Below are positions 42,001-48,000 of a stretch of 64,000 nt of DNA, piece by piece. The position numbers are program-made. Source of the stretch: Gemmatimonadota bacterium (GTDB lineage Bacteria; Gemmatimonadota; Gemmatimonadetes; Palauibacterales; Palauibacteraceae); NCBI GenBank assembly GCA_039588275.1, contig JBDHAC010000001.1, positions 54,836 to 118,835 of the forward strand, written 5' to 3'. Within the stretch, counting starts at the first letter, position 1, and each line of letters opens with the position of its first letter.

Positions 42001-45000
42001 ATTCCCAGGTGCAGTATTGGGAGCCGGCCAAGTGGGTGGCCAAGCTCCGCGCGGTGAAGACGGATGAGAACCGGCTTCTGCTGAAGACCAACATGGAAGC
42101 CGGCCACGGAGGAGCGTCCGCGCGCTACAAGCGCTACGAGGACACGGCGTTCGAGTACGCCTTCATCCTGGATCTGCTCGGTATCGAGGGCTGATTCGAG
42201 AGCCGGGAGCCCACGCCGCGGACAACACTCGCAACACCAGGCCCCGCCCGTCGCCGGGCGGGGCCGTGCCGTACACTGGCCGGTCTTCGGAAACTGACCG
42301 CCAGATCCCGTCGTTGCCGGCATGGGGCATGATCCCCGGTTCGAAGATTCTCAGAAGGAGTCAGGCGTGAGCGTAGGGAACAGGTGGGTTCCGCTGGGTG
42401 CCGTATCGCCGTCGAAGCTCGAAGCGGCCCGTCTCGATCTGCACTGGGCAGCACAGGCCGTCGGTATGGTGGGTAAGCAACTTCTCGAACCGGTCCCGGA
42501 TCACAGTCACGGCTCGCTGGAGTGGTTGGATGAGCTGAGCGCGCTGGCCGGGCGCTCGCTCGCGGACGGATGCCGGGTGGCGCTTCGGGTCGCCTCGCAG
42601 GAACTGCTCGTCCTGGGCGGGTCCGCCGAAGTGTCGGATCGGCTGGAGCTGCGCTCGCACACCGTCTCCGCGGCCTCCGCATGGGTCCACGATCGCCTCC
42701 TACAACGCAGCGAGGTCGCCCGCGAGGCGGACTGGGTGCCTGTCACACCCTCGGGTCTTCCCGACGCGTCGGTGGGGCGGGGCGCGCCGTTCGGACCAGC
42801 CGGCGCCGCCCACGTGGAGCTAGCGCGCTGGTTCGGGAACGCCAATAGCGCCCTTCGGCGCTTCGCGGATCGCGAGCCCGGTGCGTCGCCCGTGCGCGGA
42901 TGGCCGCACCACTTCGATCTGGCGACCCTCATCACGCTTGACCGGGATGCCGTGCCCGAGGAAGCACGCTCAGTAAGCTTGGGCCTGTCGCCGGGGGATG
43001 CCTCGATTGGGGAGCCGTACCTGTACACGCTTCCGTGGCCGGCGCCCGATCCAGCTTCGCTTCCACCTCTCGACGCCGGTGGTGCGTGGGTCACGGATGG
43101 TTGGGTCGGGGCAGCGCTCACGGGCTCGGAGCTGGTGGGGTCGAGCGACGCCGCGGAGCAAGCGGCGACGGCGATCGCGTTCTTCGAATCGGGTCTGGCC
43201 GGCTCGAAGAGGTTGTTGGGCATCACTTGAGAGGCTGCTGATGTCGGATGAAGCCGGTACGACCGTGAACAGACGCTGGTCTAAGGCTCTGGATCTGGAC
43301 GAGCTTCCGGAAGGGCGCGTAATGCCGGTGACGTGTGCGCACCGCACCGTCTGCATGACTCATTTCGAGGGAAGTTACGGGGCGCTGGACAACAAGTGCC
43401 CGCACCAGGGTGGTCCCCTCGGCGAAGGCTCGATCGAGAACGGTTGGCTGCGTTGCCCGTGGCACGGGTGGGATTTCCACCCGCTCACGGGAGCGGTCCC
43501 GGGGGGCTTCGAGGATACCGTCGAGACATTCCCCGTCGAGGTTCGGGAAGACGGTGTGTACGTGGGTTTCCCCGAGGAGGGGCCGCACCACCCCACCGCC
43601 GCGGACCTCATCGCCCAAACCCTCGTGAACTGGGGCGTCAAGCACGTCTTCGGAATGGTCGGACACTCGAACCTGGGCATGGCGGATGCGCTCCGGCGGC
43701 AGACCGAGATGGGGGCCTTGGATTATGTGGGCATTCGCCACGAAGGGGCGGCTTCCTTCGCGTGCTCCGCGTACGGCAAGCTCACCGGGCGTCCGGCGGC
43801 CTGTTTCTCGATCGCGGGTCCCGGAGCGACGAACCTGTTGACGGGTTTATGGGATGCCAACGTGGATCGAGCGCCGGTCATCGCGATCACGGGTCAGGTC
43901 GATACCCAGGTGCTGGGCCCCGGAGCCTTTCAGGAGGTGGATCTGGGCGCCGCCTTCGGCCAGGTGGCGCAATGGTCGCAAACGGTTCTGCATACCAGCA
44001 GGCACGCGGAGCTGGCGAATCTCGCCTGCAAGACGGCGATGCAGAACCGCGGGGTGTCGCACCTCATATTCCCGAACGAGGTGCAGACGATTCCGTGGCC
44101 AGATGGCACGCGGGCCGGTGCACCGGAAGGGCGCCTCGCGCACCGCCGAATCGAGCCTCCGGCAGAGGCCCTGGGCCACGCACTCGGTCTCCTCGCGGCG
44201 GCGAAACGGCCCGTCATCATCGTGGGGCATGGGGCGCGGTTCGAAATGCCCGAAATCCTCCGGTTCGCCGAGACGTTTCGAATCCCGGTCCTCACGACCT
44301 TCAAGGCCAAAGGGCTGATCGCCGACAGTCACCCCCTCGGGTGCGGCGTGCTGGGTCGGAGCGGGACACCGATCGCGAGCTGGTTCATGAACGAGACGGA
44401 CCTGCTCCTGGTCCTCGGTGCCAGCTTCAGCAACCACACGGGGATCAGCTCCAAGAAACCGACCATCCAGGTCGACTTCGATCGGCTGGCGTTGGGTCGG
44501 TTCCACGCGGTGACAGCGCCGGTGTGGGGCGAGATCGGCGTCACCGTTCGCGCGCTGACCGATGCGCTCGACGGTCGCATGAGGAATGTGGACCAGACCG
44601 CCGAAGTCACGGAGAGATGGAAGATCTGGCGGAGCGAGAAGGAGCGGCGGGAGCTGGAGGAGCGCGGCGAAGGGGTGAGCTCGGCCGCCGTCTTCGCCGC
44701 GATGACGCGTCAGGTCCCGGCGGACGCGATCATTCCCGTGGACGTCGGTAACAACACGTACTCCTTTGGCCGTTACTTCGAGTGCGAGCGACAGGCCGTG
44801 TTGATGTCCGGCTATCTGGGGTCGATCGGATTCGCTCTACCCGCGGCGCTCGGCGCCTGGGCGGCGACACAGGAGGAGGATCCACGCTTCCACGGGCGCC
44901 CCGTCGTCTCGATCTCGGGCGACGGCGGATTCGGGCAGTACATGGCGGAGCTGACGACCGCAGTGAAGTACGGAATGAACATCACGCACGTGCTGCTTCA

Positions 45001-48000
45001 CAACGGCGAGCTCGCGAAGATCTCGAAGGAACAACGCGCCGGAGATTGGGACGTTTGGGAGACGTCACTCCACAACCCCGATTTCTCGGCCTATGCGGAG
45101 AATTGTGGTGCGCTCGGTGTCCGTGTCACGAGGAAGGAGCAACTGGACGATACGCTGGCCCTGGCGTTGGCGCACGAGGGTCCGGCGCTGGTGGAGATAA
45201 TGGCGGATCCCCTGCTCGTGTGACGGCCGGTGCGCCTCGGGCACAGGGCGATCCCGGCGGTGGCGTAAGCCGGTCGCCCGGCTCAGCCGTAGATCGCCAG
45301 GAGCCGGTAGACGAAGAAGATCGTCACGCCGCCCTCCAGCACCCACGACATCGGCTGCTTGTAGTACCCGATGAACATGTCCTTCCCCCACCAACCCGTG
45401 TCCTTGAACAGGTTCAGGGAGTACTTCTTCCTCGTCAGCGGCCATAACAGAGGAAGCCCCACGGTACTTCCGATGTCCGCCGCATAGTGGGCGGCAACCG
45501 CGATGGCGCCCAAAAGGGCGTAGTGGGGCGAAAACAGGGCGATGACCGCCCCGACGAGCAAGGCGAAGGATAGCGAATGCGTGACGGTGCAGTGAAAGCC
45601 GCCATCCACGACCCAGAACGGCTCCTTCATCTCTTTCTCCTCGATCGCGGCGACGGGGTTCTTCCCCTTCAGTAGCCGCTCGAACCTGATCGAGCCTCGG
45701 ATGGCGGGCCTGTCCAGACCGGACTTTACCATCAGAGAATCGAAGTTCGGGAGCCAGTGCATCGCGATACAGAAAGCGGCAGTCTCGGGGCTCCAGTCGT
45801 AGGTCGCGATCGACAGCGCTACCGGCAGGTGGCCGAATTGCATCTGGCTCAGGTCTCCTGGGTCGACGGGTGCCTGCGGGGAGGCGCGAGCAGGTCGCGG
45901 AGCGAGCTCCCGGGCCCCTCGTGTGGGCGGCCGACAAACTGATCGCCGGGCACCCCGACGGCAACGTCCCGAGACGTCCCGAAGGCGCTCCCCGGGCGGC
46001 CTCGCCGCCCCGACCCGGGTTCCGGCACGGATGCCCTTCGGCGGTGGTCAGCCGCCCGCATTCGCCCTACCTTTCATGCACCCCCACGAAACCCAAAAGG
46101 CCAAGGTCTATCATGGCTACCGGAATAGCAGACCTCAGTGAAGCACCCGCCCGCAGGGGCGGTTTCGATCTCTCCGGACACGGGATCACGGTGAGCGACG
46201 TTCGCCGAAACCCGCCCCCGGCCGTCCTGTACGAGGACGCGCTGGGCGGAATCGATCCCGAGACGCAGATCGCGGCGAACGGGGCGCTTGTCGCCTACTC
46301 AGGCGACAAGACCGGGCGCTCGCCCAAGGACAAGCACGTCGTTCGCGGCGCGGAAACCGAAGGTGACGTCTGGTGGGGTCCCGTGAACTTCCCGCTGGAG
46401 CACGAGTCGTTCGTCAAGAATCGCGCGCTCGCAAGCGAGTACCTGAACGGGCGTGAAGTGCTGTATTGCATCGACGGGTTCGCCGGTTGGGATCCCGCGC
46501 ATCGCCTAAACGTCCGGGTCATCTGCGCACGCCCCTACCACGCCTTGTTCATGCACAACATGCTCATCCGCCCAACGCCGCAGGAGCTCGCCGAGTTCGG
46601 CGATCCGGACTTCGTCATCTACAACGCCGGGCGACAGCCGGCGGACGAGTCCGTGGAAGGGGTCACCTCGAACTGCAGCATCGACCTCAGCTTCGAGGAC
46701 GGGGAGATCGCGATCCTCGGCAGCGAGTACGCCGGGGAGATGAAGAAGGGGATCTTCACCGTCATGCACTACATGATGCCGAAGGTCGGCGTCTTCTCCA
46801 TGCACTGTTCGGCGACGACAGACCCGAGGTCGGGCGCGTCTTCGCTCCTCTTCGGGCTCTCCGGGACCGGCAAGACGACGCTCTCCGCCGATCCGCACCG
46901 GTTGTTGGTCGGCGATGACGAGCATTGTTGGACGGACACCGGGATCTTCAACATCGAGGGCGGTTGCTACGCCAAGACGATCGACCTCAGCGAGGAGAAG
47001 GAACCCGACATCTACCACGCGCTCAAGTTCGGGTGCGTGCTCGAGAACGTGATCCTCAACCACGATCGAACCGTGGACTACGCGGACGACCGGATCACGA
47101 TGAACACGCGGGGCTCTTACCCGATCGAGCACATCGAGAACGCCAAGATCCCGTGCCTGGCCGGCCACCCGACGGACGTGGTCTTCCTCACGGCAGACGC
47201 GTTCGGCGTGCTCCCGCCGGTGAGCAAGCTCACACCGGAGCAGGCCATGTACCACTTCATCAGCGGGTACACGGCGAAGGTGGCGGGAACCGAGGTCGGC
47301 GTCACCGATCCCGAAGCCACGTTCTCGGCCTGCTTCGGCGCTCCGTTCCTGGTGTGGCACCCGGCGGTGTACGCCGAGCTGCTCGCCGAGCGCATGCGAA
47401 CGCACGGGACCAACGTGTGGCTTGTGAACACGGGGTGGAACGGCGGCCCATACGGAGTGGGTGAGCGGATCAGCCTCCCCTACACCCGGTCGATCGTCAA
47501 CGCGATCCACACCGGTGCGCTCGCGGACGCACCTACGGAGCCGGACCCCGTCTTCGGCATTCACGTGGTGACCGAGGTGCCCGAGGTGCCGAGCGAGATC
47601 CTGAAGCCGCGTGACACGTGGGAGGATGTGGAAGCCTACGACGCAGCGGCGCACAAGCTCGCCGGCCTGTTCACCGAGAACTTCAAGACCTACGAGGATG
47701 ACTGCCCGCCCGAGATCTGCGGAGCGGGGCCGAAGGTATAAGCGGGCCGCTGCGAAGCAGCCTGCCAGTCCGAACGGGGTGACGCGGTCGACGCGTGCGG
47801 GTCGTCTGCCGCGTCACCCCACCGACCCGATTCGACACAGTCCGTTTCAGCCCCCGGTAGGCTCGGGCCCGGTGCCTTGCGGGTCCGATACCGAGCTCAC
47901 GGGGCAATGCGTAGGAGCCATCCATGAGGCGGCGACGCTGGTTTGAACGCACGTTCGATCTCGGCCATCGAGCCGACGCGTTTCCCGACATTCTGGAGCG

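Follow-up and report, generated by a model that had tools for sequence, protein, structure and literature searches.

The window, the whole 64,000-nucleotide stretch of Gemmatimonadota DNA analysed here, encodes a 660-residue thiamine-diphosphate (ThDP) enzyme with an N-terminal Rieske head, a real and widespread protein that is apparently unstudied. The head slot of its ThDP core is interchangeable, with rubredoxin or CDGSH domains replacing or joining the Rieske domain, and a second Rieske enzyme of the same genome is its conserved partner rather than a coincidence. We give a probability of about 0.55 to the reading that the two are substrate dehydrogenases feeding one shared acceptor, rather than a wire for making glutamate.

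Layout and relatives of the Rieske-headed ThDP enzyme

Translation of positions 43241-45223 (+) gave an open frame of 660 residues without an internal stop, with GAGG immediately 5' of its start. The first-pass annotation had described a Rieske and ThDP enzyme of this length, and the intact + strand frame, together with Pfam matches to Rieske, TPP_enzyme_N, TPP_enzyme_M and TPP_enzyme_C at the residues listed below, bears this out. A 741-residue version starting at the in-frame ATG at 42998 was rejected because it runs into the upstream gene and homologues begin near 43241. Scanning 42000-45600 for promoters and terminators gave no signal exceeding chance. The features discussed are as follows.

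43241..45223, + strand: Rieske-headed, predicted ThDP/FAD enzyme of the pyruvate oxidase superfamily, 660 residues (frame, Pfam, homologue alignment, model)
43277..43498, + strand: Rieske [2Fe-2S] head, residues 13-86, ligands C53, H55, C72 and H75 (Pfam, conservation)
43595..43942, + strand: pyrimidine-binding domain, residues 119-234 (Pfam TPP_enzyme_N, PoxB alignment)
44177..44557, + strand: central domain, residues 313-439, with segments that align to PoxB/POX FAD-binding segments (Pfam TPP_enzyme_M, PoxB/POX alignment)
44741..45199, + strand: diphosphate-binding domain, residues 501-653, GDGG...N588 motif (Pfam TPP_enzyme_C, PoxB alignment)
42367..43230, + strand: DUF5996-like gene, 287 residues, WPHHFD motif, 10 bases upstream of the ThDP enzyme
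C83:23852-25486, on another contig: partner, Rieske plus glutamate-synthase FMN domain, 544 residues

The head belongs to the Rieske family, having the CxH...CxxH ligands, no disulfide cysteines and a Pfam match over residues 13-86 (3.6e-14) of 52.9 bits against a cut-off of 20.3. The rest of the chain has the PYR-central-PP domain order, catalytic Glu and GDG...N motif of the ThDP decarboxylase superfamily (POX/AHAS type), and the AlphaFold2 model of the whole enzyme has a mean pLDDT of 90.1. The invariance previously claimed for the cofactor residues was upheld, since C53/H55/C72/H75, H167/E168, D561-G563 and N588 are identical in 121/121 aligned sequences; the four Rieske ligands are also kept in 76/76 sequences of a second alignment.

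Comparison with solved structures placed Escherichia coli PoxB (PDB 3EY9/3EYA) first by sequence (E 3.7e-62 over residues 119-654), and Lactobacillus plantarum pyruvate oxidase (POX; 1POW, 4FEE) also matched (E 1.4e-58). PoxB and Corynebacterium glutamicum PQO (9EV3-9EV6) are among the best fold matches, with TM 0.90-0.91 of target and rmsd ∼2.8-3.0. In the alignment with PoxB, whose GDG...N motif also aligns, the catalytic E168 corresponds to E50 and F230-Q231 to F112-Q113, whereas D27 is replaced by H142, a histidine specific to the Rieske-headed family. H399 in the central domain is invariant, and POX E483 is retained as E597. The central-domain segments G329-H-G, T353-F-K-x-K, G393-A-S-F, D412 and G430, conserved in the alignment with PoxB and POX, are those that we take to bind FAD in these two enzymes, which makes FAD the most likely electron route. 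At the position of PoxB F465 and POX F479, an aromatic that is presumably the electron relay residue, the enzyme has K593, and Lys stands there in 74/76 sequences. PoxB continues to residue 572, past the end of the match at 526, whereas the window enzyme stops ∼40 residues sooner; its C-terminus lies 4 residues past D656 in 121/121 aligned sequences, and the Rieske-headed enzyme therefore has no membrane anchor. What it has, unlike PoxB, is the N-terminal Rieske head, and compared with POX it thus gains a built-in one-electron carrier.

The enzyme appears to resemble PoxB and pyruvate oxidase in working mode, yet it is neither of them. It scored under every NCBIfam cut-off shown, namely those of the PoxB/PQO profiles (NF006591, 277/792 bits; NF005114, 262/893 bits), the POX/YdaP-type profiles (NF006377, 383/742 bits; TIGR02720, 281/638 bits) and the acetohydroxyacid synthase (AHAS) large subunit profile (TIGR00118, 260/538 bits), the YdaP-type family PRK08611 being its top NCBIfam family. 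The other ThDP homologue of the host genome, on contig C48, is only 28% identical to it. The best solved matches of the head are Rieske ferredoxins of ring-hydroxylating oxygenases (E 5.9e-10 to 5e-6), soluble proteins such as the naphthalene dioxygenase ferredoxin 2qpz and T4moC, with BphF in the same group; here, in contrast, the head is fused to a ThDP enzyme, and a search of the host genome gave three Rieske matches in all and no further free Rieske ferredoxin. Likeness to PFOR/OFOR is one of concept only, in that a ThDP enzyme oxidises a 2-oxo acid and electrons leave via iron-sulfur centres. Those enzymes are built from different domain families: the window enzyme has no POR or Fer4 Pfam match and no [4Fe-4S] motif, and has an FAD-type central domain instead.

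Distribution, exchangeable heads and the partner

At least 8,000 candidates passed a homologue search with the full protein, and the best 120, at 71-92% identity, all carry PF00355, PF02776, PF00205 and PF02775. The range first given, Gemmatimonadota, Myxococcota and Alphaproteobacteria, is correct as far as it goes but too narrow, as the Rieske-headed family spans more than ten bacterial phyla, judged by record names, and haloarchaea. It is highly conserved (57-75% identity between phyla) and patchy, occurring in 10/151 genomes of its own phylum, and a search of 301 genomes of the Verrucomicrobiota group gave two matches. Public names are limited to 'thiamine pyrophosphate-binding protein' or 'pyruvate oxidase'. 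A literature search with little coverage of subscription papers listed no study of the family and none of DUF5996, in agreement with the earlier view that the family is unstudied. Cultured hosts, by source name, include roseobacters, haloarchaea and Pontiella species.

The same core carries Rieske, rubredoxin, rubredoxin plus Rieske, or CDGSH plus Rieske heads. We surveyed 120 listed proteins, of which 112 aligned to the window enzyme and 109 were full length; among the latter, 74 had rubredoxin only, 24 rubredoxin plus Rieske, 7 Rieske and 4 no detected head, and all 109 kept H142, E168, H399, Y507, Y525, K593 and E597. A quick tree built from 81 cores places 22 Rieske and 4 rubredoxin rows on one branch (SH-aLRT 100).

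The second Rieske enzyme, at C83:23852-25486, matches its earlier description as a Rieske domain joined to a glutamate-synthase-type FMN domain. It is present in 9/10 own-phylum genomes that have the ThDP enzyme versus 5/141 that do not, leaving one ThDP-only and five partner-only genomes among the 151. The nine genomes span three families, and in four of them the two genes are on separate contigs or megabases from each other; in the host genome they are likewise unlinked. Across in-clade ThDP-enzyme loci the partner was nearby in 66/174 and not nearby in 108/174, many of the latter being short contigs, and in two genomes (G151 and G155) the ThDP enzyme occurs with no partner. With looser de-duplication, the pair shares a strand in 64/68 loci.

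Residues 219-523 of the partner match the FMN/[3Fe-4S] domain of GltB (1EA0/1LLW; E 3.2e-36 to 3e-31). S222, K288, Q291, K294, R314, K356 and C457/C463/C468, kept in all 48 full-length copies, align to what we take to be the FMN, 2-oxoglutarate and [3Fe-4S] sites of glutamate synthase (GltS). Unlike GltB, the partner lacks the amidotransferase, central and GXGXG domains (137/1047 bits against the curated GltB cut-off), does not conserve the SIEDL loop segment, and has a Rieske, rubredoxin or CDGSH domain as its head.

Wherever the heads of both enzymes could be read, they match. In 69 paired loci we found 54 Rieske/Rieske, 3 rubredoxin/rubredoxin and 1 CDGSH/CDGSH pairs (58/69) and no Rieske/rubredoxin mismatch; of the remaining 11, 8 contain a truncated or disrupted gene, and in 3 (L007, L109 and L113) the glutamate-synthase protein is of another subfamily. 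The rubredoxin-headed partner itself falls in a separate subfamily (46-47% core identity), and so the pairing has formed more than once. These matched swaps suggest one shared acceptor for both enzymes, although matched heads could also stem from local domain duplication between adjacent genes.

Proposed electron path and shared acceptor, and competing readings

The earlier proposal, that this is a redox-active ThDP enzyme with its own iron-sulfur head as the electron exit, is still the best reading, and the rubredoxin and CDGSH heads on the same core now add to its support. The protein would be a soluble ThDP/FAD 2-oxo-acid dehydrogenase in which ThDP decarboxylates the 2-oxo acid and FAD takes up two electrons; these would then exit singly through the carrier head, which would stand in for the membrane anchor and quinone of PoxB. 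The partner, having no amidotransferase beside its head and FMN/[3Fe-4S] domain, would most likely act oxidatively (glutamate to 2-oxoglutarate and NH4+), so that both enzymes would donate electrons, through plugs of the same type, to one common one-electron acceptor. This acceptor is possibly a peroxide-defence enzyme; it could be rubrerythrin in rubredoxin-headed operons and a ferric-reductase-like membrane protein with a Rieske domain in some aerobes. The data show the architecture and its conservation, the missing anchor, the co-occurrence, the swapped and matched heads and the gene neighbours; from these we infer a bound FAD, a bound cluster, the electron path and its direction, the acceptor and the substrate. 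Several points weigh against this reading: AHAS enzymes, which are not net redox, also retain the FAD-binding segments; the relay aromatic of PoxB and POX is replaced by Lys; the rubrerythrin link is based on two related genomes; and the partner is not close by in most in-clade loci.

In those two genomes (L187 and L188, ThDP enzymes 84% identical) the ThDP enzyme, the partner, a Fur-family gene and rubrerythrin form one same-strand run, and the rubredoxin head is identical at 18/32 positions to rubrerythrin's own rubredoxin domain. We do not generalise this link, because the Verrucomicrobiota-group genomes gave only their two matches and additional searches a single extra rubredoxin-headed locus in the regions examined. 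A ferric-reductase plus Rieske membrane gene is present in 13/213 loci. The host genome, at 85.8% completeness, shows neither this gene nor a rubrerythrin.

The 2-oxoglutarate plus NH4+/glutamate couple lies near -140 mV. Rubredoxins span -100 to +50 mV, with rubrerythrin-type domains higher (PMC10130062). On these values, a rubredoxin head is more positive than the glutamate couple and therefore cannot drive glutamate synthesis. This bears on the reading in which electrons taken from pyruvate by the ThDP enzyme go head to head to a partner that reductively aminates 2-oxoglutarate as an ammonia-dependent glutamate synthase. Conservation of the GltS-type sites, the same-strand arrangement and the partner's being the only strong Glu_synthase match in the host genome speak for such a direct wire, and, with no canonical GltB or Glu_syn_central match found there at 85.8% completeness, the partner could be biosynthetic in this host. 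Yet the host has a glutamate dehydrogenase-family gene, full-length GltB is kept in 4/4 other pair-bearing genomes tested, no amidotransferase recurs among the clustered neighbours, and for a wire a single carrier would be enough, where here there are two alike. We therefore regard this reading as unlikely.

Quite unlikely, too, is an O2-using oxidase like the lactobacillus POX, producing H2O2 and acyl phosphate, with the head as a redox or iron sensor gating activity. The best NCBIfam match, E597 and the stress genes common as neighbours are compatible with it, but a peroxide producer fits poorly in a run with rubrerythrin, and the stacking of heads, like the use of three carrier folds unrelated to one another, favours a conducting chain over a sensor. 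In Foldseek, PoxB shares its rank with AHAS and 2-hydroxyacyl-CoA lyases, which, with the lost aromatic, would suit non-redox chemistry. The enzyme would then be a carboligase or a decarboxylase, comparable to AHAS or 2-oxoglutarate decarboxylase, its FAD being structural and its head regulatory or zinc-binding; this is improbable given that sequence searches place PoxB and POX first, the four Rieske ligands are invariant in both alignments and the slot was seen with redox-type heads only. Functional independence of the two enzymes, grouped merely through a shared stress regulon or mobile island, might be suggested by their solitary occurrences, their presence on five plasmids amid mixed stress genes and their separation in the host genome. 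It is very improbable, because co-occurrence holds even for unlinked genes, heads switch together in three different ways and the pairing, given the different subfamily of the rubredoxin-headed partner, arose more than once.

Within the shared-acceptor reading, we give even odds to pyruvate or short 2-oxo acids as substrate of the ThDP enzyme, a lesser chance to 2-oxoglutarate and a small one to others. Neighbouring genes conflict on this point: L078 has malic enzyme immediately downstream and Poribacteria loci have a threonine dehydratase upstream, both of which point to pyruvate; L100/L101 have proline and P5C dehydrogenase-like genes that point to glutamate, but the clade these adjoin is an outer one with 37% identity. 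A tentative and rather doubtful extension is an NAD(P)-independent two-step path from glutamate via 2-oxoglutarate to succinate, CO2 and NH4+, yielding four electrons. The ThDP enzyme would then be a 2-oxoglutarate-oxidising relative of pyruvate oxidase, its invariant Lys593 gripping the distal carboxylate, and both steps would plug into a peroxide- or oxygen-reducing acceptor, heads being swapped in step with it.

To our knowledge, the acceptors used by oxidative ThDP enzymes are lipoamide, O2, quinone or [4Fe-4S]/ferredoxin; if our reading is true, the Rieske-headed family adds an exit via a fused one-electron carrier. The matched heads also offer a testable function for the common class of stand-alone 'glutamate synthase-related proteins': they may act as glutamate dehydrogenases, not synthases.

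Other neighbouring genes

Oligopeptidase B, PEPCK, a YdjM-like gene and a dicarboxylate symporter, all neighbours in the window, showed no recurrence among 80 clustered loci. The DUF5996-like gene directly upstream can be grouped with the ThDP enzyme and partner as a conserved set, of which it is a frequent yet loose associate. Complex prediction for its product with the ThDP enzyme scored 0.00 in both runs, which is uninformative either way. Its model (pLDDT 95.5) had no Foldseek match at E<=0.001 and its sequence no PDB match; the best VIA hits (Z 7.5), no better than chance would give, were to mixed-sheet folds, among them frataxin/CyaY and secretion-chaperone types. The DUF5996-like protein of the window itself has no Pfam match, whereas PF19459 was found in 2/3 neighbouring homologues scanned and on 13-57% of members in its top Atlas clusters.

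The fusion enzyme and its exchangeable head

The first-pass annotation had proposed a Rieske domain fused to a thiamine-diphosphate (ThDP) enzyme, and a second Rieske fusion elsewhere in the genome. We recovered both genes as described; they are listed here with the gene next to the first:

Window 43241–45223 (+): intact 660-aa gene, Rieske domain at aa 13–86, then three ThDP-enzyme domains
Contig C83, 23852–25486: partner enzyme, 544 aa, Rieske domain fused to a glutamate-synthase (Glu_synthase) FMN domain
Window 42367–43230 (+): DUF5996-like gene directly upstream of the ThDP gene

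The four Pfam domains are common to all 120 homologues among the matches listed (71–92% identity to the window enzyme), and the claimed invariance of the Rieske ligands, E168 and the GDG...N motif held in 121 of 121 aligned sequences. A structure model was confident across both head and core (pLDDT 90.1). The best solved sequence relatives are PoxB and the lactobacillus pyruvate oxidase (POX), which by fold are level with AHAS and hydroxyacyl-CoA lyases; the enzyme fell below every cut-off among the best 25 NCBIfam families. Read off the alignment, E168, F230-Q231 and E597 fall at PoxB/POX catalytic positions, whereas H142 stands where PoxB has D27, and K593 where PoxB has F465 and POX has F479. 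Of 76 sequences with a Rieske head, 75 retain H142, 74 retain K593 and all 76 retain H399. The chain ends four residues past D656 in 121 of 121 sequences and thus lacks the membrane anchor of PoxB, and the Rieske head is nearest to soluble oxygenase ferredoxins. No study of the Rieske–ThDP family appeared among the papers that literature searches listed; the architecture is already visible in public databases. In four assemblies (L014, L021, L055, L062) the ThDP gene is broken across reading frames, by sequencing error or decay, and four distant matches (P0155, P0159, P0170, P0184) are tandem double ThDP enzymes of ∼1100 aa with two full N-M-C sets per chain.

In the nearest non-Rieske relatives within a 50% library, rubredoxin occupies the head position; in one relative, CDGSH and 4Fe-4S domains precede the Rieske domain. 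Searching with the N-terminus of a rubredoxin-headed protein gave a list of 120 matches; 112 of these aligned to the window enzyme, 3 of them as partial sequences. The 109 full-length proteins among the matches listed carried rubredoxin only (74), rubredoxin plus Rieske (24), Rieske (7) or no detected head (4), and all 109 kept H142, H399, Y507, Y525, K593 and E597. In a quick tree of 81 cores, which takes in 19 of the 72 locus sequences that are full length, one well-supported branch holds 22 Rieske and 4 rubredoxin rows, and more rubredoxin-headed clades fall outside it, with source names including Methanomicrobiales, ANME-2 and Dehalococcoidia. One single sequence of 889 aa (P0443) has an SdhB/FrdB-like iron-sulfur subunit (Fer2_3 + Fer4_8) before two rubredoxin heads, possibly a read-through of two genes.

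The partner enzyme and matched heads

The partner lies within 8 kb of the ThDP gene in 28 of 80 loci from many phyla; a relative of the DUF5996-like gene lies within the same distance in 28 of the 80, accompanied by the partner in 15. Across 151 genomes of the phylum, the ThDP enzyme occurs in 10, the partner in 14 and both in 9. The sample includes the present genome as well as G055, which is unpublished and matched neither enzyme; related genomes in it are not independent, so no weight is placed on a p-value. In this genome and in three more, the two genes are found on separate contigs or megabases apart; in G151 and G155 the ThDP enzyme occurs but the partner does not. The partner is nearby in two of four haloarchaeal plasmid loci; on two haloarchaeal plasmids a dihydrofolate reductase and an M20-family hydrolase follow it (L183:13973–17449, L184:11312–15146). 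The pair is an uncharacterised two-enzyme module, in which the family of the window enzyme would combine the chemistry of POX with another, modular route for electrons to leave.

Heads are matched within the module. Among the 69 distinct loci that contain the pair, Rieske/Rieske accounts for 54, rubredoxin/rubredoxin for 3 (L103; L180, the same as L187; L188) and CDGSH+Rieske/CDGSH for 1 (L132); 8 have a cut or broken gene, in 3 (L007, L109, L113) the partner comes from other glutamate-synthase subfamilies, and none of the 69 mixes Rieske with rubredoxin. The matching could reflect local domain duplication. L113:8835–10328 encodes a glutamate-synthase FMN domain whose head is a cysteine-rich DUF2769 domain, which may be a fourth type of head; the gene immediately follows a ThDP gene headed by rubredoxin. 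L187 and L188 encode, in this order and on one strand, ThDP enzyme, partner, Fur-family regulator and rubrerythrin, and the heads there are rubredoxins of the type that rubrerythrin itself carries; these genomes are related (84% identity), so the run counts as about one independent observation. Rubrerythrin is described as a peroxidase of anaerobes with a rubredoxin-like C-terminal domain (PMC3317640).

Proposed direction of electron flow

Electron-carrier folds were the only ones observed in the head slot, which argues for the window enzyme being a redox enzyme that exports electrons. Oxygenase-type Rieske ferredoxins have potentials of about −150 mV, and the 2-oxoglutarate + NH4+/glutamate couple lies at about −140 mV. 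PMC10130062 places prokaryotic rubredoxins between −100 and +50 mV, with rubrerythrin-type domains at higher values. With these potentials a rubredoxin head could not power the synthesis of glutamate, and a Rieske head could do so only barely. Together with the lack of a recurring amidotransferase among clustered neighbour genes, and with a full GltB coexisting with the partner in all 4 of the other genomes tested for it, this leads us to read both enzymes as dehydrogenases. Electrons would leave the ThDP enzyme through its carrier head, and both enzymes would plug, by their matching heads, into a common acceptor, a prediction to which we assign a probability of roughly 0.55.

That the two are instead joined for glutamate synthesis is unlikely: GltS substrate, FMN and cluster positions are kept in 48 of 48 partner copies, but the SIEDL loop segment is not, and the potentials, GltB and the lack of a recurring amidotransferase neighbour speak against it as well. 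Slightly less probable still is an O2 oxidase whose head acts as a sensor. Non-redox chemistry, at odds with the electron-carrier folds in the head slot, is improbable, and mere co-regulation of the two enzymes we consider the least credible. In this genome (85.8% complete) we found no rubrerythrin, no ferric-reductase+Rieske gene (one other PF01794 gene is present) and no GltB, so that here the role of the partner may be biosynthetic.

Substrate clues for the ThDP enzyme conflict. Pyruvate is suggested by neighbouring genes for malic enzyme (L078) and for threonine dehydratase (Poribacteria loci); the presence of the partner, K593 and proline/P5C dehydrogenase-like genes (L100, L101) suggest 2-oxoglutarate instead.

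Other neighbours

The DUF5996-like gene is a looser associate of the module than the partner: among the 12 genomes where it has a strong match (E<1e-80), the ThDP enzyme is present in 6, and 4 lack both enzymes. Upstream in the window, 39539–39907 (+) encodes an isolated GroES-like protein of 122 aa; it scores under every NCBIfam cut-off, and the ORFs scanned around it include no groEL. A membrane protein that resembles ferric reductases and carries a Rieske domain of its own occurs in 13 of 213 loci. It recurs in a block, not found in this genome, with small membrane genes and a Pfam-less gene bearing CxDGKCxxGAM and HKACAxLC motifs:

L009:5540–7742, recurring ferric-reductase block
L010:5533–7968, recurring ferric-reductase block
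L004:9965–12975, recurring ferric-reductase block
L078:6392–8601, recurring ferric-reductase block

A cation/proton antiporter is found in 14 of 213 loci (for example L008, L009, L011, L189, L201 and L207; by annotation also L183), often directly beside the ThDP gene or partner and in several phyla, and an EgtD-type ergothioneine methyltransferase lies near the module in five (L015, L065, L162, L166, L203).
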